Assembly: GCA_963709385.1 (NCBI GenBank)
Contig: CAVPWD010000012.1
Location: 336,989-400,988, forward strand
Direction: 5' to 3'
Length of the DNA: 64,000 nucleotides
Source: an uncultured Acidobacteriaceae bacterium
Lineage (GTDB): Bacteria > Acidobacteriota > Terriglobia > Terriglobales > Acidobacteriaceae
Position 1 is the stretch's first letter. The number at the start of each line of letters is the position of its first letter. The notes below the pieces were generated by a model that did not search any database, had not been told where the DNA came from, and saw only the letters and a list, made by a program, of their open reading frames with translations. Position numbers and translations under genes: made by a program. Below, in pieces: positions 14,574-48,895 of this stretch.

Positions 14574-16973
14574 TCAGGCTCCGTATGATGAGCGACCGGC
14601 TCCGCTCAGGCTCGACCGAGGCTTCGGCAACCACGGGAACTTCTTCCACCGATTTTCAGCAATCTCTTCCACAGCCGCGGCTTCGGGCTCGGCCACTGCC
14701 TGCTCGACCGCCACTTCCTCGACTGCTTCGACTTCAACGGGCTCGCCTTGGACGGTCTCATCGACGGCCACTTCAACCGACGGAATGTCGTCGGCAGTCA
14801 GCTCTTCAAATTCGGGTTCGGCAGCGACCGCAGTTTCTTCTTCCGCGGCCTGCGGGGTGGCGGCCTCGACCTCGGCTCGTAGCTGCGCGACTTTCGCGCG
14901 GTCACCAGTCAGAGTCTGGAGCTTGGCCAGCGCGGCCATCGCCTGCTCAGGCATGCCGTGCGCCAGATAGAAGCGAATCTCTTCGACGGTCTCGTCTTCC
15001 TTACCCGCGGGGACTTCGTGCACCCCGGCGGCGCTGGCGACTTCGGCTTCCGCAACTTCCGCCGCCGGCTCATCCGCCTCGACCGCAATAGTGTCATCCC
15101 ACTCCGACGAAAGATCGATTTCAGACGACGCAGCGGCAGGCTCCGTCGTCGCTTCCGTTGACTCATCAACGACTGCAAATTCGTTGTCGACCGGCTCGAC
15201 GGTGATTTCCTCCGCATCGGCGGTCGTGGGCCAGGGTGAAGCAGCTTCCGCCTCGGGTGCGGCTTCTTCCGCCACGGATTCTTCGATTGCACTCTCCGCC
15301 GGAACTTCGTCAACGGAGAACTCCGGCACCGAGCCTTCCGCTTCGCCGGCCTGAACTTCTTCAACTTCCGGCGCATCCAGATAGATAGGAGCCTCTTCGA
15401 CGTGCAGGCTGTGCGCCGGGGTCGAAGAGCGCTCTTCATAACGCTCCGCCAGTTCGCCGTAACGCGTGGCTTCTTCCGGATGATCCGCATCGGAGTAGAT
15501 GCTCTGCAAAGTGCGGCAGCAAATGCCAGCTTCGGCGAAACGCTCGGCGCGCGTATGCAGAGCCGCGAGGCGCTGATTCAAGCGAAGATCGTTCGGCGCC
15601 ATCGGCAGCGCACCAACCAGCGGGCCCAGCGCCTTGGCGGGCATGTTGTAGGAAATGAAAAGTTCGGCGTCAGTCAGCGCGGAGCGGATCGCGAGCGCAA
15701 CCTCGTCAGAGTAATGTTGGTGAATCGACGGCGCCGTCGCTTCCAGGTCGTCGATCAGCACCACCGCTTCTTCTGGCGTGATCAGCTTGCTGCCGGAAGT
15801 GCCGCCCAGCTGGCTGACCACCTGCTGATAGTTCTGCATGTGCAGGGGGTTCTGCGGCTCGATGGTTGCGAGTTTCTGGTAGAGATCGCGGGCGCGGGGA
15901 AGATCTCCCGATTGCACGCTGGCATGGGCCAGCAACTCCGTGACCTCGCCAACGTGGGTGTTCTCGCCGGCTTTGTGGAACAGGTCCAACAATTTCTGCA
16001 GCGAGTCGGGATTCTCCCGCACATGCCCGATGATGGTATGCAGGCTGTCGAGAACCTTGTCCGAATTTTCCGCCAGCAGACGCTCGGCGTGCTGGTCGAA
16101 GACCTGCAGAGCATTTTCGTACTGCCCGGCCTGCATGAGGGCGTCGGCAAAACTGGAAATGGCCGGCAGATCGTTGTGCACGGTCAGCAGCTTGTTGGCG
16201 ACCGCTCCTGCATCGGAAAGTTGACCACTCTGCAGATACGCCTTGAGCAGGTCGCGCAGTCCGTCGGGATTCGAATCGATGTCGGAAACTTTTGTAAGAG
16301 TGGCAACTGCGCCGGCCGCGTCGCCCGATTCAATCAGGTTCTTGCCTTGCATCAGCAACGCATAGGCGTTGCCCGGATCGAGCGTAAGCATCCGCTGCAG
16401 AACTTCGTCGGCCGCAGGGAGCGATCCGCGCGAGCGCAGGCTCTCGGCGGCGGCCGAGAAAATCTGCCAGGCTTCCGTCTTTTTGCCCAGGCGAATATAC
16501 ACTTCCGCCAGGCGCACTCGCATGGCGCTGTTTTCCGGATCCATCTCCAGAATCTTCTGGAAAATGCGAACCGCGTTCTCGAGTTCGCCGGCCTTGAGAA
16601 ATTCTTCCGCCACCTGCAGGTACTGGGCGCGGGCGTCGTTGAAAAGGCCTTGCTGGGTATAGAGTTCCGCCAGCTTCAGCAAGCTCTCGAGCGAAGGCTG
16701 GAGCTTGCAGATCTTCTTGTACATGGCGATAGCCTTGACCGTGAAGCCCTGGCTGGCATAGGCATCGCCTACTGTCTTGAAGCACTCGGTAGCTTTATCG
16801 CTTTCCCCGCTGCGCGAGTACAGGTCGCCGACGGTGTTGGTGACCGTCAGATCCTTGGGGTCATTCTTGAGGATCTTCTCGTACTCTGTGATGGCATTCG
16901 GCAGTTTGCCCTGCTGGACATACTTCTCCGCATTGGCGAGAACCTTCTGTTTGTTGAAACCGAACAGCGCCAT
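14574..16973 (-). CDS. large TPR protein with an acidic repeat C-terminal half
   Basis: 799-aa ORF. The N-terminal ~480 aa are TPRs, followed by Glu/Ala/Val/Pro-rich repeats. The last ~27 codons (NRWKKFPWLPKPRSS...) look out of frame. Confidence 0.8.
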   Translation of the reverse strand: MALFGFNKQKVLANAEKYVQQGKLPNAITEYEKILKNDPKDLTVTNTVGDLYSRSGESDKATECFKTVGDAYASQGFTVKAIAMYKKICKLQPSLESLLKLAELYTQQGLFNDARAQYLQVAEEFLKAGELENAVRIFQKILEMDPENSAMRVRLAEVYIRLGKKTEAWQIFSAAAESLRSRGSLPAADEVLQRMLTLDPGNAYALLMQGKNLIESGDAAGAVATLTKVSDIDSNPDGLRDLLKAYLQSGQLSDAGAVANKLLTVHNDLPAISSFADALMQAGQYENALQVFDQHAERLLAENSDKVLDSLHTIIGHVRENPDSLQKLLDLFHKAGENTHVGEVTELLAHASVQSGDLPRARDLYQKLATIEPQNPLHMQNYQQVVSQLGGTSGSKLITPEEAVVLIDDLEATAPSIHQHYSDEVALAIRSALTDAELFISYNMPAKALGPLVGALPMAPNDLRLNQRLAALHTRAERFAEAGICCRTLQSIYSDADHPEEATRYGELAERYEERSSTPAHSLHVEEAPIYLDAPEVEEVQAGEAEGSVPEFSVDEVPAESAIEESVAEEAAPEAEAASPWPTTADAEEITVEPVDNEFAVVDESTEATTEPAAASSEIDLSSEWDDTIAVEADEPAAEVAEAEVASAAGVHEVPAGKEDETVEEIRFYLAHGMPEQAMAALAKLQTLTGDRAKVAQLRAEVEAATPQAAEEETAVAAEPEFEELTADDIPSVEVAVDETVQGEPVEVEAVEEVAVEQAVAEPEAAAVEEIAENRWKKFPWLPKPRSSLSGAGRSSYGA

Positions 16974-17122
16974 AAGAGTGCGAACCCCAGACCTGGTCTT
17001 TAGAGAACAACCTCTTTACAAAAACACAATCGCTGAACGCCGGGTGTTCGGGGAACTGCTCCCGGGATTGCCCCGAGGGTCATCTCACCTATCGGCAGAT
17101 GGACCGACCGGACAAGGCCAAT

Positions 17123-17194
17123 TGTACGACCGGACTCCACGAACCGCATGGTTACCAAGGGTTACCAAAAGGGAGTGTACGACCGGGTTACCAA
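17123..17194. repeat. cluster of short direct repeats (GGTTACCAA x3, TGTACGACCGG x2)
   Basis: GGTTACCAA at 17150, 17160 and 17186. TGTACGACCGG at 17123 and 17176. The cluster lies 150-220 bp upstream of the TPR gene start (16973, minus strand). Confidence 0.5.
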
Positions 17195-17569
17195 CGGAAC
17201 CCCGGGAAAGTGACCGCCAGCGTTAGCAGAAGTGGTGCCCCCGCGGTATCTCTGGTTGCCAGGAAAATCATGTGGGGACAGCCGCCAACGGCTGTCCTTC
17301 GAGCGCCAGTTCGAAATGTTTTTGCCCGATCATATCGAAGACGGCAGCGTCCGCAGGACGCCCGATCGTCGCCCGGCGTTTCAACGCCGAGTAACAGAGG
17401 CGAGACTGAACACCGTCCCGGCAGGGACGGCTGAAATGAATCGATCCGGATGGTTTCAAAAGCGCCCGCTTCGCTCAACCGCCTAATATGATCATGCTAT
17501 CGAGCCGGATCATCCGGCGGTGTATTTTTTTCAAACCGAAAATTTCGGAACCGCGTAACCCGAGGCCCC

Positions 17570-18136
17570 ATGACCTGGATCAAAACCATCCCCCTTTCCG
17601 AAGCCGACGAGAAACTCCGCAAAGCCATCGAGGCCCAGCGTCTCGTCTATCCCAAGGAATACGGGGATCCCGTTCATCCCGACGAATCCGGCGGATCATC
17701 CATCGTGGGTTCCCACACCCTGATTCCCGAAGCGCTGCATCACGCCTTCAGCACGTTCGGATCGCTCATGTCGCCCGACCTCCAGCTGAACCGCCGCCAG
17801 CACGAAATGATCGCCACCATGGTCTCGGTCACGAACCGGTGCGTCTATTGAATCGAATCACACGCAGAGTTTCTGCGTAGGGTGACGCTGGACAAGACAA
17901 TGGTCGAGGCCTTGGAAAAGGACTACGCTACCGCTCCGATCTCAGCCCAGGATCGCGTCATGCTCGACTACGTAATCAAACTGACCAAGGACGCAACGAA
18001 AGTCTGGAAGGACGATATGGATGCCCTGAGGAAAGCCGGCTTCGACGACCGCGGCATCCTGCAGATCACGCTGATCGCGTCCTGGTTCAACTACATCAAT
18101 CGCGTCGCCGACGCGCTGGGCGTGGGCCGGGAGTAG
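17570..18136 (+). CDS. AhpD/carboxymuconolactone-decarboxylase family peroxidase-related protein, candidate selenoprotein (TGA 17849-17851 read as Sec)
   Basis: ORFs 17570..17851 and 17882..18136 share one frame and are separated only by TGA plus 10 sense codons. The TGA replaces the second Cys of the family CxxCxxxH motif (NRCVY-TGA-IESH). Confidence 0.7.
17858..17885 (+). promoter_or_regulatory. candidate bacterial SECIS stem-loop
   Basis: TCAC-ACGCAG-AGTTT-CTGCGT-AGG-GTGA. It starts 7 nt after the TGA, with an apical-loop GU about 20 nt from the UGA. Confidence 0.55.
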
Positions 18137-18267: not shown

Positions 18268-18597
18268 CTATCTCCTTGCCTTCTTGAGCATGGCGGAAAT
18301 ATTTTCCAGCTCTTCCTCTGTCAGGATGCAGGAACTCCCCAACGTCACGGTTAGAATACGATTAATTTCTTCTAGTGGCCTGCCTTTGGTCCGTTCGATA
18401 AAACGCGACCACTCCCTCCCCACAGCGGCGCGCTCCTGCGTACTGGCGTCGGCGCAGAATTCCCTCACCGCTTCCTCCGGCGAGCCGTACTCATCTTTCA
18501 TGTCCTGATGAAAATATCCCCGCAAAAAGCTGTGCAGCGCGGGGTAATCGGCGGCGGAGATCGCGGCTGGACTCTTGGGAGGATTTGGCTCGTTCAT
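18268..18597 (-). CDS. CdiI-like immunity protein
   Basis: ORF 18268..18651. The ATG at 18597 overlaps the toxin stop (ATGA). Pattern typical of contact-dependent-inhibition immunity proteins (YPALHSFLRGYFHQD...). Visibly more AT-rich than its neighbours. Confidence 0.7.
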   Translation of the reverse strand: MNEPNPPKSPAAISAADYPALHSFLRGYFHQDMKDEYGSPEEAVREFCADASTQERAAVGREWSRFIERTKGRPLEEINRILTVTLGSSCILTEEELENISAMLKKARR

Positions 18598-19127
18598 CGG
18601 CGGCACTCCGGATAGGCAGTCAGAACGTGATAGCTGTTCGCGCCGTCCCACTTCAACACGATCACGGCCTGAGCGCAGGGCTCGACGCGGTCTTCGCCAC
18701 GCCGCAGCGTTCGTCCAAAGGGATGCGCTGAGTCGCCGTCGTAATCGAGGACGAGATTCGGGTGGCCGTTCTCGCGTGCAAGCCAGCGGGAAATTTTGTT
18801 GCTCTCTTGCGCAAGCGCCGCACCAATGGCAGCTTCGGCGCTTTGGCGGTCATTCCAGGTGGATGCCGCCGAGAGGTTGCGCTCGCGCCGCAACCGCTCG
18901 CGCAGTTCTGCATCGCTTCGTCCCACATGCTTGCGCAGAGTGTGTCCGCCCGCGGCCTCGTCTTGCGAGAGATCGCGCGAGGGACCATGCCGCGCGTCAA
19001 AGAATGGCTGGGCACTCGGCCCGTTCTCCGGCGCCGGCGGCCGCGTGCAAGCCGCGCTCAAGCCGATCAGCGCGAGCGCGAGCATCCCCTGGACAAGGCG
19101 CGTTCGAAATGGAATTAAGCGGCGCAT
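18594..19127 (-). CDS. secreted bacterial RNase A-like (CdiA-CT type) toxin domain protein
   Basis: ORF 18594..19214. I prefer the ATG at 19127, giving signal peptide MRRLIPFRTRLVQGMLALALIGLSAAC. The domain pattern is GGHTLRKHVGRSDAELRERL...AASTW...ISRWL...HVLTAYPE. Confidence 0.7.
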   Translation of the reverse strand: MRRLIPFRTRLVQGMLALALIGLSAACTRPPAPENGPSAQPFFDARHGPSRDLSQDEAAGGHTLRKHVGRSDAELRERLRRERNLSAASTWNDRQSAEAAIGAALAQESNKISRWLARENGHPNLVLDYDGDSAHPFGRTLRRGEDRVEPCAQAVIVLKWDGANSYHVLTAYPECRR

Positions 19128-19406
19128 CGGAGGAAGCCAGACTACACAACCGCCGCCCAAAAAGCATCCGCAACAGAGTGCGAATAACTTAGACCCCAAG
19201 AAGGCGGAGCGCATGTTGCACTTCGCAAACTGTACTCCCGTCCCTCGTTCCCCTCACGATTCCACTAAACTTGTGCTGGAGCGCCATGTCCGAATCCCTC
19301 GCAGAGTTTTTTCTCGGAGAACTTTCGCGCCCACCGCCACGAGTGCGCCTACCGCCAGCGCCGCGGATACCGCACTGAATCGTTCACCTACGGTGAAGTC
19401 CTGGAG

Positions 19407-37161: not shown

Positions 37162-38613
37162 GTGAATCTGGACGACACCATTGTCGCGATTGCCACACCC
37201 ACAGGGCGGGGAGGGATTGGAGTGGTGCGGCTGGCGGGACCTGCGGCGCGAGAGATCGTTGCGCCTATGCTGCGGCTGCGGCATGAACTGGAGGCGGGGC
37301 GGGCGGTGTTGGGGGAGTTGGTTGAGCCGGAGGTTTCCGCTTCAGTGCAAGAAGTCAAAATCCCCACCCCTTCGGCAAGCTCAGGGCAGGCTCTCTTTCG
37401 CGAAGAACGCGAAAGAAGGATGGGGCACCCGCAGCATCGGATCGACGAGGTGGTCGTCACTTATTTTTCCAAGCCACATTCTTATACGACCGACGACATT
37501 GTCGAAATTTCGGCGCATGGGGCGCCGGTGGTGTTGCGGCATATTGTGGAGCTTTGCGTGGCGGCGGGGGCGCGGCTGGCGGAGCCGGGCGAGTTCACCA
37601 TGCGTGCGTTTCTGAACGGGCGCATCGATCTTACGCAGGCGGAGGCGGTGCGCGATCTGATCGATTCGCAGACGTTGTATCAGGCGAAAGTCGCGGCGCA
37701 GCAACTGGAAGGCGCGCTGTCGCGGCGGTTGCAGCCGATCAAGAAAACGCTGGTGGAGCTGATTGCGGTGCTCGAAGCCGGGATTGATTTTGCCGAAGAC
37801 GACGTGTTGGTGATGGCGGACGCCGCGATTCTTGATCACATTGCTTCCGTTCGTAAACCCCTAGAGCAGCTGAACGCCACATTTGCTTACGGCAAGATCG
37901 TGCATGAAGGCTTGACTCTGGCAATTGTGGGGCGGCCGAACGTTGGGAAGTCGAGCCTGTTTAACCGGTTGGTGGAGCGGGAACGGGTGATCGTCACCGC
38001 GACTCCGGGGACCACGCGCGATTTGGTGAGCGAGACGGTCGCGATTGGCGGGATCCCGGTCAAGCTGATCGACACAGCCGGCATTCGCGAGGCGCTCGAT
38101 GAGGCGGAGTCGATCGGGATTCGCAAATCAAAGGAGGCGCTGGCCGACGCAGACCTGGTGTTGGTCGTGCTCGACGCATCGCAACCGGAGACGGCGGACG
38201 ATGCGGAACTGCAGCGGCTGGCTGAGGGCCGGCCGGCGATTGTCGTGGGAAACAAGTGCGACTTGGGAAGCAGTGGACAGTGGACAGGGGCCAGTGGTCA
38301 GAAGGTTCTTACTTCAGCGATCACTGGCGCGGGCATGGCCGAACTTCGCGAAGCCATTCTGCGACACATTGGTGGTGAGGCGGGAGCGCCGGCGGAGTCT
38401 GGTTTTCTGACCAGCGTTCGCCATCAGGGATTGATCAACGATTCGATGGCTGCGCTGGATGCGGCAAAGGTTGCGGTGACGGGGAAGATTCCGCACGAGA
38501 TGCTGCTGCTCGATCTTTACAACGCGCTGCGGCCGCTGGATGCGATCACGGGGGCGACTACCACAGACGATATTCTGAATTTGATTTTCAGCACGTTCTG
38601 CATCGGGAAATAG
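37162..38613 (+). CDS. mnmE: tRNA modification GTPase MnmE
   Basis: N-terminal [20 protein letters not shown] domain [18 protein letters not shown] and NKCD. C-terminal CIGK. Confidence 0.95.
37357..37430 (+). repeat. REP-like hairpin element embedded in frame in mnmE
   Basis: AAAATCCCCACC...CTTTCGCG-AAGAA-CGCGAAAG...GGATGGGGCACCC has the same termini as the intergenic units at 37053-95 and 42334-76. It encodes [25 protein letters not shown]. Confidence 0.65.
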
Positions 38614-43620: not shown

Positions 43621-45675
43621 CTAGAGTGCGGCGGCTTGCTCGCGCCGGCGAGCCTGAATTTCGACATAGACGTTCACCAACGACACCGCTGCCGGGGTCA
43701 CTCCTGGGATGCGCGAGGCCTGGCCCAGCGTGCGCGGTTGCACTTTGCTGAGCTTTTCCTGCATTTCGCGCGAGAGGCCGCTGACGGAGCGGTAGTCGAA
43801 CCATTCGGGGATGGCATGCTGCTCGGACTTTTTCAGGCGCTCCATGGCGCGCTGCTGCTGCAGCAGGTAGCCTGCGTACTTGATCTCGGTTTCGACGGAT
43901 TTCAGTTCGTTTCTTACTTCCGACGAGATCTTCACCACAGGGGAGAACCTTGCGAAGAAATCCGGGGTGAGCTCTCGCAGGACCGGCAGCAGTCGCTCGA
44001 TTGCGATTTCCGGGCGCTTTAGCAACTGACCCAGCGTTTGTCCGAGGGCAGACGACAGGTCGGCAGTTGGGGCGCCGCCGGCGACAGCAGGTTCCTCACC
44101 CTCGCTTCGCGAGAGTTCGGAATGACAAGACGCCAATATTTCGGCGGTGATCCGAGTGGTCTCCAACAACTTCTTCAGCTTCTCCAGCCGCTGCTGCTTC
44201 GCCTGAAAATCTTCCCAGGCTTCATCATGAATGAGCCCGACGCGGCGGCCGTGGGGAGTGAGGCGGCGGTCGGCGTTGTCGATGCGGAGGTGCAGACGGA
44301 ACTCGGCGCGCGACGTGAACATGCGGTAAGGCTCGTTCGTGCCCTTCGAAATCAGGTCGTCGATCAGGATCGCGGTGTATGCTTCGGTTCGGTCGAGAAT
44401 CAGCGGCGGTTGTTGCTTTACTTGCTGCGCGGCGTTGATGCCGGCCATCAATCCCTGGCACGCGGCTTCTTCGTAGCCGGACGTCCCGTTGATCTGGCCC
44501 GCGAGGAACAGGTTCGCGATCTTGCGGGTTTCGAGCGTGCGCTCCAGTTCCGTTGGATCGATCGAGTCGTATTCGATGGCGTAGCCCGGCCGCAGCATTT
44601 CGGCGTTCTCAAGCCCGGGGATCGACTTCAGAATCGCCATCTGCACTTCGACCGGGAGGGAGGTGCTCATACCGTTAACGTAAATCTCGTGCGTGTTCAG
44701 GCCTTCGGGCTCGAGGAAAAGCTGGTGCGTCTCCTTGTCGGGAAATTTCACGATCTTGTCTTCGATCGAGGGACAGTAGCGCGGGCCGATCGACTGAATC
44801 TGGCCGCTGTACATGGGCGAGCGATGCACGTTCTCGCGAATGATGCGGTGTGTCTCGGCCGTGGTGTAGGCGATGTAGCAGGGCACTTGTGAGTCGTGAT
44901 GCGCGACGCGCTTCGTTCGAAAACTGAACGGAGTGGGATCGGCGTCGCCCGGCTGCTCCGCGAAGCGCGACCAGTCGATGCTGCGTCCATCCAAGCGCGG
45001 CGGAGTGCCGGTCTTGAGCCGGCAGCCGCGCAGGCCCAACTTTTTCAGCGCTTCGCCGAGCAGGACGGCGGCGGGTTCGCCGGAACGTCCGGCAGGATAT
45101 TGTTGCTCGCCGCAGTGGATGAGGCCGTTCAGGAACGTTCCGGTCGTGATGATGACGGCTTGCGCGCCCACGGTGCGGCCGTCGCGAAGGCGAATGCCGA
45201 GAACCCGGCGTCGGTCGTTGGTCGTTAGTCGTTGGTCGTTAGCAAAAGCGTCGCCATCCTGCGGGTCGGCCAACGACGAACGACCAACGACTAACGACTC
45301 GACTTCCGCCTGCTTGATCTTCAGATTCGGCTGCGACTCCAGCACTTCGCGCATTTTCAGGCGGTAGGCCTGCTTGTCGCATTGGGCGCGCGGCGACCAG
45401 ACGGCGGGGCCGCGCGACGTATTGAGCAGACGAAACTGGATGCCGACCGCGTCGGTGATTTCGCCCATGATGCCGCCGAGGGCGTCTACTTCGCGGACCA
45501 GGTGTCCTTTGGCAATGCCGCCGACGGCGGGGTTGCACGACATCTGCGCAATCAGATCGACGTTGAGCGTGTAGAGCGCGGTCTTCAGGCCCATGCGCGC
45601 GGCGGCCATGGAAGCTTCGCATCCAGCATGGCCGGCGCCGACCACGACTACGTCGAATTGTTCGGTGAATTGCAT
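43621..45675 (-). CDS. mnmG: tRNA uridine 5-carboxymethylaminomethyl modification enzyme MnmG (GidA)
   Basis: [18 protein letters not shown] motif, then [24 protein letters not shown] and the C-terminal [13 protein letters not shown]. Confidence 0.95.
44091..44135 (-). repeat. REP-like element (GTCATTCCGAAC family) embedded in frame in mnmG
   Basis: The coding strand reads TGGCGTCTTGTCATTCCGAACTCTCGCGAAGCGAGGGTGAGGAAC and encodes [14 protein letters not shown]. It matches the intergenic copies at 56559-97 and 7773-7804. Confidence 0.6.
45213..45298. repeat. inverted GGTCGTT / CCAACGA heptamer arrays embedded in frame in mnmG
   Basis: GGTCGTT GGTCGTT AGTCGTT GGTCGTT, then a 27-nt loop, then CCAACGA CGAACGA CCAACGA CTAACGA. 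Confidence 0.8.
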
Positions 45676-47561: not shown

Positions 47562-47683
47562 TAAATCACGTAGCCCGGACGCATGATCCAGCGGCACGCT
47601 TTTGACTTCCGAGCGGGCGCTCGTTGCGCGGACGAAGGCGTCGGCCGCTCCACGGCGATTGCGGTTGCTACAATCGCAATCGG

Positions 47684-48895
47684 ATGTCGCTGCAATTTCA
47701 GATTGAAAAGACTGCCGGCTCTGCCCGCCTCGGGCGCCTGATCACGGCGCATGCGGTGATCGAGACGCCGGTGTTTATGCCGGTCGGGACCGTGGCGTCG
47801 GTCAAGGGCGTGTCTCAGGACATTCTGGAAGAACTGGGCGCGCAGATTATTCTCGGCAATACCTATCACCTCTACCTGCGGCCCGGCATCGATACGGTGC
47901 GGAAGATGGGCGGGCTGCATGGGTTCATGGCGTGGCGGCGGGCGATCCTGACGGACTCCGGCGGGTTCCAGGTCTTCAGCCTCAACGAACTGCGCAAGGT
48001 CAGCGAAGAGGGCGTGACGTTTCGTTCGCACCTGGATGGGTCTTCTCACTTCTTCAGCCCGGAGAGCGCGATGCAGGCGCAGATCGGGCTGGGCGCCGAC
48101 ATCATCATGGCGTTCGATGAATGCACGGAGTATCCGGCGGATCGCGCGCGGATGCGGGATTCCATGGAGATGACCGCGCGCTGGGCGGCGCGCAGCAAGA
48201 AATATTTCGAAGAGCATAAGCATGAAGTGCCGTGGAACCAGGGGCTAGGGGCCAGTGGCCAGGGATCAGGAGATCAGGGGCCAGAGGCTCCGGCTAATCC
48301 CTTGCCCCTAGCCCCTAGCCCCTCGACCCAATCTCTCTTCGGCATCGTGCAGGGCGGGATGGATCGCGAGTTGCGAAGAGAGTCCGCCGAGCGGACGGTT
48401 GAAATCGGATTTCCCGGCTATGCAATTGGCGGACTCAGCGTGGGTGAGCCGCGCGAGCTTACGCGCGAGATGGTCGAATCCACGCTGGAGCACCTTCCCT
48501 CGGACAAGCCACGTTATGTGATGGGCGTGGGTACGCCGGAAGAAATTGTCGAGTATGCCAGCCTGGGCGTGGACATGATGGATTGCGTCCTGCCGACGCG
48601 GGCGGCGCGGCACGGGCTGCTGTTTACGTCGGAGGGCAAGGTTTCGATCAAGCAAGCGCGCTACGCCCAGGATGCGGGGCCGCTCGACCCGAATTGCTCC
48701 TGCCGGGTGTGCCATCGCTATTCGCGAGCATATTTACGTCATCTCTATGCTTCTAATGAAGTTCTGGCGCAGGTCCTGAACACGATCCACAACCTGAGTT
48801 TCTACCTTGACACTATGCGGCGGGTGCGGCATTCTATCTCACTTGGGGAAGAGGCTCGTTTTCTTTCGAGTGTATGGTCTCTACCGAAACCGTAG
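47684..48895 (+). CDS. tgt: queuine tRNA-ribosyltransferase
   Basis: ORF 47624..48895; ATG at 47684. Motifs TPVFMPVGT, LTDSGGFQVFS and GYAIGGLSVGEP, plus zinc site CSCRVC...H. Confidence 0.95.
   Translation: MSLQFQIEKTAGSARLGRLITAHAVIETPVFMPVGTVASVKGVSQDILEELGAQIILGNTYHLYLRPGIDTVRKMGGLHGFMAWRRAILTDSGGFQVFSLNELRKVSEEGVTFRSHLDGSSHFFSPESAMQAQIGLGADIIMAFDECTEYPADRARMRDSMEMTARWAARSKKYFEEHKHEVPWNQGLGASGQGSGDQGPEAPANPLPLAPSPSTQSLFGIVQGGMDRELRRESAERTVEIGFPGYAIGGLSVGEPRELTREMVESTLEHLPSDKPRYVMGVGTPEEIVEYASLGVDMMDCVLPTRAARHGLLFTSEGKVSIKQARYAQDAGPLDPNCSCRVCHRYSRAYLRHLYASNEVLAQVLNTIHNLSFYLDTMRRVRHSISLGEEARFLSSVWSLPKP
48241..48323. repeat. inverted GGGGCYA / TAGCCCC heptamer arrays embedded in frame in tgt
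   Basis: GGGGCTA GGGGCCA GTGGCCA GGGATCA GGAGATCA GGGGCCA ... TAATCCC TTGCCCC TAGCCCC TAGCCCC. Confidence 0.75.

Follow-up and report, generated by a model that had tools for sequence, protein, structure and literature searches.

AhpD-like proteins with a CxxU redox motif, in which U is selenocysteine (Sec), were recognized in 2005 as a new selenoprotein family among Sargasso Sea sequences, with 27 members and predicted selenocysteine insertion sequence (SECIS) elements (PMC1088965). They are also among the most abundant selenoprotein families of the Global Ocean Sampling data, with 299 sequences (PMC2398784), and a 2026 review lists them as ‘AhpD-like protein, TIGR01926, CxxU’ (PMC13188914). 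Three selenoprotein families were attributed to Acidobacteria in 2006 (PMC1794560), and Occallatibacter riparius DSM 25168 is a Sec-user with AhpD-like, deiodinase-like and FdhA selenoproteins (PMC12013277). The gene considered here is at positions 17570-18136 of a 64,000-nucleotide (nt) stretch of contig CAVPWD010000012.1 from an uncultured Acidobacteriaceae bacterium, and this whole stretch is termed the window. The gene is interrupted by an in-frame TGA, and with a probability of roughly 0.9 it is a genuine AhpD-like selenoprotein gene in which UGA codon 94 specifies Sec and is followed by a SECIS-type hairpin. It is a new and mis-annotated member of a large orthologue clade of soil Terriglobia, in a family that was already known, including from Acidobacteriota; as a first-pass annotation of the window had noted in proposing a selenoprotein, such proteins have been reported from metagenomes.

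The reference sequence of the AhpD-like 1 family (COG2128 / TIGR01926), MCB9421940.1, is 37% identical to the window protein over the full length; family and window protein share the CxxU within N-x-C-x-Y-U-x-x-x-H, the length class, the M-x-W-I N-terminus and, just after the UGA, a hairpin whose small apical loop carries a G, a feature on record for the family (PMC1088965). The window protein, however, belongs to a distinct orthologue clade from soil and peat Terriglobia rather than from marine plankton, and the core of its clade’s hairpin shows essentially no variation among more than 160 sequences. The Occallatibacter selenoprotein is from the same phylum and family and has the motif ...NRCPYULDSHAYFLR..., but its 41% identity is confined to the C-terminal 116 residues and its N-terminal region differs, so that it represents a paralogous or divergent lineage and not an orthologue. 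DR1765 of Deinococcus radiodurans (6k40) and the structural-genomics relatives 2pfx, 3c1l, 2oyo and 2prr have the same fold and an N-x-C-x-Y-C-x-x-x-H active-site helix; they are, however, Cys forms that lack UGA and SECIS, and are about 27-32% identical to P0077, the orthologue modelled below. AhpD of Mycobacterium tuberculosis (TIGR00777; 1knc, 1gu9) has CxxC-x3-H, the upstream relay Glu and the all-helical CMD (carboxymuconolactone decarboxylase)/AhpD fold in common with the window protein but has the motif in another part of the chain and is matched by Foldseek with E of only about 0.07-0.3.

UGA codon 94 within a single AhpD-like domain

The open reading frame (ORF) 17570-17851, which ends with the TGA at 17849-17851, and a second ORF, 17882-18136, with a GTG start, share one reading frame. 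Ten sense codons (17852-17881) lie between the TGA and the GTG at 17882, and the read-through product is 188 amino acids (aa) long, with the sequence ...VSVTNR-C91-V-Y-[UGA94]-I-E-S-H98-AEFLRR... around the junction; all this is confirmed on the sequence as the first-pass annotation had it. The ten codons are among the most conserved of the protein and contain the catalytic His. Homologues keep the N-terminus MTWI[KR]T, and relatives have purine-rich AGGA, GGGG or GAGG stretches at the position of the Shine-Dalgarno-like site. When scored against profiles with Cys put in for U at codon 94, the protein gives 115 bits with the NCBIfam model TIGR01926, ‘peroxidase-related enzyme’ (curated cut-off 81.8; residues 52-185 correspond to 39-173 of the 178 model positions), and Pfam PF02627 (CMD) is also matched, in line with its earlier assignment to the CMD/AhpD-like ‘peroxidase-related’ family. 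Related selenoprotein families score below their cut-offs and do not include it (NF041238, AhpD_rel_CFYUT, 58.1 against 175; NF053654, YciW-related (seleno)proteins, 33 against 310), and canonical AhpD, TIGR00777, with 19.6 bits against 191.95, is likewise a subfamily to which it does not belong.

At the DNA level codon 94 is exactly TGA in all 80 of the loci taken from genomes of different species, nearly all of them from Acidobacteriota (Terriglobia, ‘Ca. Sulfotelmatobacter’ and Acidobacteriaceae metagenome-assembled genomes), in 80 of 80 soil metagenome contigs, and in both of the most diverged forms stored with ‘W’ at this position, which makes 162 of 162 TGA-type relatives, down to about 66% identity. 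Stored proteins give a different picture: among the 120 best database matches the residue at this column is W in 77, Cys in 40, Leu in one and Ser in one, and in one the region is deleted. Cys is found in the more distant homologues and TGA in the close relatives. The expectation that Cys would align with the TGA column is borne out by these 40 and by all five of the closest PDB relatives, and homologues that end at the column or have another residue there, the pattern that had been named as speaking against a selenoprotein, are not what the 162 TGA-type DNAs and the more distant Cys forms present. Replacement of Cys by Sec in a thiol oxidoreductase motif, which the first-pass annotation took to be the signature here, is further upheld by hairpin selection that is confined to the TGA-forms (below). 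The Sec/Cys pair at codon 94 is genuine. On a distance tree with the column masked about four Sec/Cys switches are needed, two of which rest on doubtful entries.

The W entries are mistranslations or gene-caller artefacts. Metagenomic gene callers probably assign code 4 to short contigs with an in-frame TGA; the two W entries that were checked have TGA in their DNA and their loci do not give the stored protein under code 11, and at the locus L171 the gene’s own final TGA was likewise turned into W, the call continuing beyond it. The Leu variant (P0075, locus L166) has TTA, one base from TGA, with the hairpin and the remaining TGA-type context intact, which is consistent with a very recent change or lesion, or with an error. 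In P0053, 20 residues around the TGA are spliced out. P0077 and P0054, both of the source ‘src’, show Cys, yet the nearest DNA, 95% identical, has TGA; a metagenome scan led by P0077 gave 80 loci, every one of the TGA type and with identities to P0077 that reach 95%, and the Cys in these two entries may be a U-to-C substitution made by that source. Splitting of the gene by ORF callers had also been surmised, and the exact 93-aa and 84-aa fragments do stand as separate public entries from one 953,899-bp contig, with the cluster of the C-terminal fragment alone counting 103 members. In public collections this gene family takes three wrong forms (orphan fragments, proteins with a false Trp, and a version from which the active site is spliced out), and all three hide the catalytic residue. 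The scientific weight of the gene, as an unannotated member and orthologue clade of a known family, is modest and its practical value is in annotation quality; it would also imply that the source organism and many ‘Ca. Sulfotelmatobacter’-like soil bacteria use selenium.

Both sides of the TGA belong to one protein domain. By sequence the PDB relatives 2pfx, 3c1l, 6k40, 2oyo and 2prr are found with E of 1e-24 to 1e-17, in alignments that are continuous from about residue 53 to 183, across the TGA, with Cys opposite codon 94 in every case. The structure model used is the AlphaFold model of P0077, a 70%-identical orthologue; it is all-helical, with a predicted local distance difference test score (pLDDT) of 80-97 in the core straight across the junction, and has the CxxC at the N-terminus of helix 92-105. 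Foldseek with this model has 6k40, 2pfx, 3c1l, 2oyo and 2prr as its top matches, at 1.6-3.3 Å over about 130-140 core residues. As a single AhpD-like domain spans the TGA both in the PDB alignments and in the model, the two ORFs are halves of one domain. In 148 distinct gene sequences both halves have variation dominated by the third codon position, and the uncorrected ratio of nonsynonymous to synonymous polymorphism (pN/pS) is 0.36 for the half before the TGA and 0.20 for the half after it. Both halves are under purifying selection, strong in the downstream half, which is translated, and the two halves are not the independent genes that the first-pass annotation had asked about.

The hairpin 3′ of the UGA

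Positions in the hairpin are counted here from the U of the UGA as 1. The stem-loop first drawn, UCAC / ACGCAG-AGUUU-CUGCGU / AGG / GUGA, exists in the window as drawn, with a minimum free energy (MFE) of -12.6 kcal/mol, and its upper part is conserved while its lower stem is not. The G-U that had been placed in the apical loop about 20 nt from the UGA is at positions 21-22, and the loop G is the invariant wobble base of Glu100. In 147 distinct 54-nt segments there is no variation at positions 13-29 apart from A18, which is G in three of them, where an A-U pair becomes G-U. In the upper helix, 14-20/24-30, 98.1% of cells are paired and five of the seven pairs never vary among 129 sequences, A14-U30 being broken in 17 of them; the core helix is present in the MFE structure of 143 of the 147 sequences, with a mean pair probability of 0.97. 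The 17-nt hairpin occurs once in the window.

Conservation of the encoded amino acids does not account for this. Among 98 degenerate codons with conserved amino acids in the 148-sequence set, the only ones that are frozen, that is with one codon in at least 97% of sequences, are 98-102 (CAC GCA GAG TTT CTG), which form the helix and loop, and a location of all five frozen codons among the ten that follow the TGA has a hypergeometric probability of 3.7e-6. Since neither GCA nor TTT is preferred elsewhere in the gene, codon bias is not the cause of the freezing, and the wobble positions that flank the hairpin (12, 33 and 36) use all four bases. Cys-forms provide a decisive control: seven independent genes that encode H-[A/V/T]-E-F-L-R-R vary at all the frozen wobble sites (CAC/CAT, GCC/GCG/GTC/GTT/ACG, GAG/GAA, TTT/TTC, CTG/CTC) and cannot form the ACGCAG/CUGCGU helix. 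There is a further difference immediately 5′ of codon 94, as the Tyr93 codon is TAT in 70 of 70 TGA-type sequences of a smaller set and in 137 of 147 of a larger one, and TAC in all eight Cys-form DNAs (seven distinct genes). The selected element is the 17-nt upper hairpin, with selection at the RNA level that is specific to the TGA-forms, and the combination of an invariant hairpin with a Cys-form control makes it a clean test case for SECIS predictors and for SelB binding in Acidobacteriota.

In the minimal element of Escherichia coli fdhF a hairpin of about 17 nt follows the UGA at a distance of about 11 nt, and SelB contacts a G-U in its loop; the window hairpin, with 17 nt and a distance of 10 nt, resembles it in size and spacing. 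Like bacterial SECIS elements of this kind, the window hairpin is part of the coding sequence, comes immediately after the UGA and has a small, G-bearing apical loop (PMC1088965), and helix 14-20/24-30 with loop G21-U22-U23 conforms to the bacterial SECIS as worded there. It differs in having no bulged U, only 5-7 bp, a loop of 3-5 nt and neither a model nor a match in Rfam.

Table 1. Coordinates in the window of the AhpD-like gene, its probable recoding features and the adjacent gene pair
Feature	Position	Strand	Remarks
Complete AhpD-like (TIGR01926 / CMD fold) gene, probable selenoprotein gene	17570..18136	+	188 codons including one in-frame UGA
Shine-Dalgarno-like GAGG, putative	17562..17565	+	4 nt before ATG; read from sequence
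Glu79 codon, proposed proton-relay glutamate	17804..17806	+	12 residues before Cys91
Redox motif C91-V-Y93-U94-I-E-S-H98	17840..17863	+	matches AhpD proton relay together with Glu79
Tyr93 codon TAT, immediately 5′ of UGA	17846..17848	+	context bias in Sec-forms
UGA codon 94, inferred Sec codon	17849..17851	+	second redox position of C-x-x-U
Full hairpin as first drawn	17858..17885	+	lower stem 17858-17861/17882-17885 forms here, not conserved
SECIS-type upper hairpin, 17 nt, ACGCAGA-GUU-UCUGCGU	17862..17878	+	5 to 7 bp; starts 10 nt after UGA
Apical loop G21-U22-U23 (A-G-U-U-U if A20-U24 open)	17869..17871	+	invariant columns
Stop TAG of AhpD-like gene	18134-18136	+	
127-aa CdiI_2 immunity protein, PF18593	18268-18651	-	overlaps toxin gene
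206-aa protein, bacterial CdiA-CT RNase A domain, PF18431	18594-19214	-	

Decoding of the UGA and role of the product

Several results count against reading codon 94 as Sec. The case for selenium at residue 94 is indirect. Neither tRNA-Sec nor any other tRNA is present in the 64-kb window, a Pfam scan of 50 window ORFs gave no SelA, SelB or SelD, no second candidate selenoprotein gene was found in the window, and 60 related loci that were scanned contained no tRNA. With regard to the hairpin, its folding energy alone is not beyond chance (z = -1.2, with 20 of 200 shuffles folding equally well), and the lower helix, 10-13/34-37, is 71.9% paired and not conserved, with pair 11-36 open in 70 and pair 12-35 in 65 of the 129 sequences. 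As the upper helix is invariant no pairs are changed on both sides, so that base pairing, as distinct from primary sequence, is not independently proven. Rfam gave no SECIS-type or other significant family, either for the whole window at the gathering threshold or for 16900-17950 at E<=1, and left the hairpin unmatched. In the model of P0077 the N-terminal 50-60 or so residues are of low confidence.

How else could the UGA be read? That it is a true stop, leaving a pseudogene or two small genes of 93 and 84 aa, would agree with the separate public storage of the two fragments and with the GTG at 17882, which could in principle start a second ORF, but this is effectively refuted by the TGA at the same codon in all the TGA-type relatives, by an in-frame downstream half with low pN/pS, by high conservation of the ten codons before the GTG, among them that for the catalytic His, and by a domain that crosses the junction and has full-length Cys homologues. 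Use of TGA as a sense codon for Trp or Gly in an alternative code would account for the prevalence of W among the best matches, and is refuted too: the W entries trace to TGA in DNA as set out above, the aligned residue in homologues is Cys and not Trp, and of the 39 long ORFs in the window 12 end at a TGA, as is ordinary under the standard code that the organism uses. A reassigned TGA (code 4 or 25) was rejected on the same grounds, no further in-frame TGA of the window being credible as part of a coding sequence; 56 in-frame TGAs in the window have high third-position GC content on both sides, of which only that at codon 94 is in a redox motif, and the rest are off-frame noise of a 60% GC genome. 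A further alternative is read-through by a route other than Sec, with a Cys- or Ser-charged tRNA(Sec)-like opal suppressor or near-cognate Trp giving a full-length protein that is not a selenoprotein. Absence of Sec machinery from the 64-kb window would be expected on this explanation, acidobacterial 8/4 and 9/3 allo-tRNAs may act as missense and nonsense suppressors, and SelB-like factors may serve selC* tRNA(Cys) at UGA codons in other phyla (PMC5389517); the conserved hairpin would also fit a SelB-dependent variant that inserts Cys. However, that study found selC* in Firmicutes, Thermodesulfobacteria, Nitrospirae and Proteobacteria and not in Acidobacteria (PMC5389517), a cultured Sec-user of the same phylum has an AhpD-like selenoprotein with the same motif, the family is already established as a CxxU selenoprotein family, and were Cys inserted it would be hard to explain why TGA and a costly frozen hairpin were kept in more than 160 lineages when TGC or TGT is one step away; this explanation is very improbable. 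Hardly less so is the proposal that near-invariance of ACGCAGAGUUUCUGCGU and the bias for U before the UGA, which hold for more than 160 sequences from Terriglobia with a protein divergence of up to about 35%, mark a lineage-specific and sequence-specific recoding signal rather than a generic SECIS; it could take the form of an acidobacterial SelB variant that is unusually strict in its recognition of RNA or, more radically, of decoding by the tRNA(Sec)-like allo-tRNAs of Acidobacteria that inserts something other than Sec.

With Sec at residue 94 as the favored reading, the active site can be compared with those of characterized relatives. In two homologue alignments the columns of E79, C91, Y93 and H98 are invariant or nearly so, E79 being invariant. 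The spacing of E79/C91/Y93/U94/H98, including the 12-residue gap between Glu and Cys, is identical to that in the proton relays of M. tuberculosis AhpD (Glu118/Cys130/His132/Cys133/His137) and PA0269 (Glu36/Cys48/Tyr50/Cys51/His55) (PMC3141380), and where the former has His132 the window protein has Tyr, as does PA0269. Loss of DR1765, the closest characterized homologue and the one source of functional data, sensitizes D. radiodurans to H2O2, and complementation needs the CxxC cysteines (PMC8945050). With the UGA in the ribosomal A site, the hairpin would recruit SelB with Sec-tRNA(Sec) in competition with release factor 2. Sec94 and Cys91, at the N-terminus of the helix, would then alternate reversibly between selenenylsulfide and selenol/thiol, to judge from the family, with the Glu79 / Tyr93 / His98 relay assisting their chemistry, and the enzyme would reduce a peroxiredoxin-type partner or hydroperoxides directly in defense against oxidative stress. 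The attacking nucleophile of M. tuberculosis AhpD is the second of the two motif cysteines, which would fit the presence of Sec at this position. By analogy the window protein probably works like AhpD, as a thioredoxin-like selenol-thiol reductant, though outside the canonical subfamily; we infer its content of selenium, its dependence on SelB and tRNA-Sec and its physiological substrate.

A selenoprotein whose role is not peroxide-related but is in reductive dehalogenation, or in other disulfide or sulfenate reduction on the AhpD fold, is an appreciable though minority possibility. TIGR01926 proteins are ‘uncharacterized peroxidase-related’ structural-genomics targets, the conserved neighbors include no peroxiredoxin partner and no AhpC-type gene is adjacent, and the marine debrominase Bmp8 shares the AhpD fold (Foldseek matches 6ohi and 6ohj, E about 2e-3). 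On the other side, every residue of the AhpD relay (Glu, Cys, Tyr/His, Cys/Sec, His) has been kept, the nearest characterized homologue guards against H2O2 by means of its CxxC, and identity to Bmp8 is just 12-14%. The fold likeness of Bmp8 is of interest in its own right as an indication that AhpD-fold CxxC/CxxU proteins need not be peroxide-related.

The surrounding DNA

A tetratricopeptide repeat (TPR) protein is encoded nearby in 54 of 80 loci and an AMP-binding/acyl carrier protein/acyltransferase fusion in 60 of 80, and neither gives a clue to a partner. The AhpD-like gene is immediately followed in the window by an orphan toxin/immunity pair at 18268-19214 on the minus strand (Table 1); this pair is present in only 11 of the 80 related loci and so looks like an insertion into the interval between the AhpD-like gene and the AMP-binding/acyltransferase gene.

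Upstream, at 17485-17530, is a motif present in many relatives, CTA[AG]TATGAAnGnGCTAT followed by about 20 GC-rich nt and GTGTATyTT, which in the window reads CTAATATGATCATGCTATCGAGCCGGATCATCCGGCGGTGTATTTTTTT and is a candidate promoter or operator. A terminator-like hairpin with a T-run, also just before the gene, is not conserved as a hairpin in relatives, and its interpretation as a conserved attenuator was therefore rejected. Within the 596-bp intergenic region between the divergent TPR and AhpD-like genes a block at about 17046-17217 has 78-90% DNA identity in many related loci and no Rfam match; in some loci about 2 kb separate it from the AhpD-like gene, and so it probably travels with the TPR gene, of which it is probably a 5′ leader or small RNA. 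On the minus strand at 17348-17391 there is a full-length match to the Acido-Lenti-1 RNA motif (RF01687), plausible for the taxon but below threshold (20.1 bits against a gathering score of 37, E = 0.06 in a 1-kb search).

On two unrelated contigs, L161 and that of P0099, Cys-form AhpD-like genes are followed by a gene for an EF-hand and T4-deiodinase/Redoxin-like protein. That on L161 (3713-4801) was considered as a second selenoprotein gene and rejected, since it carries TGC (FGNFTCGPF) and frameshifts in that contig account for its being split. Occallatibacter has a selenoprotein of the deiodinase-like kind as well, a hint that the two redox families may be functionally linked.

Farther along the window mnmE (37162-38613), mnmG (43621-45675) and tgt (47624-48895) are within 12 kb of one another, beside ruvA and yajC-secD-secF, and this tRNA-modification and housekeeping context supports the window being chromosomal and non-mobile.

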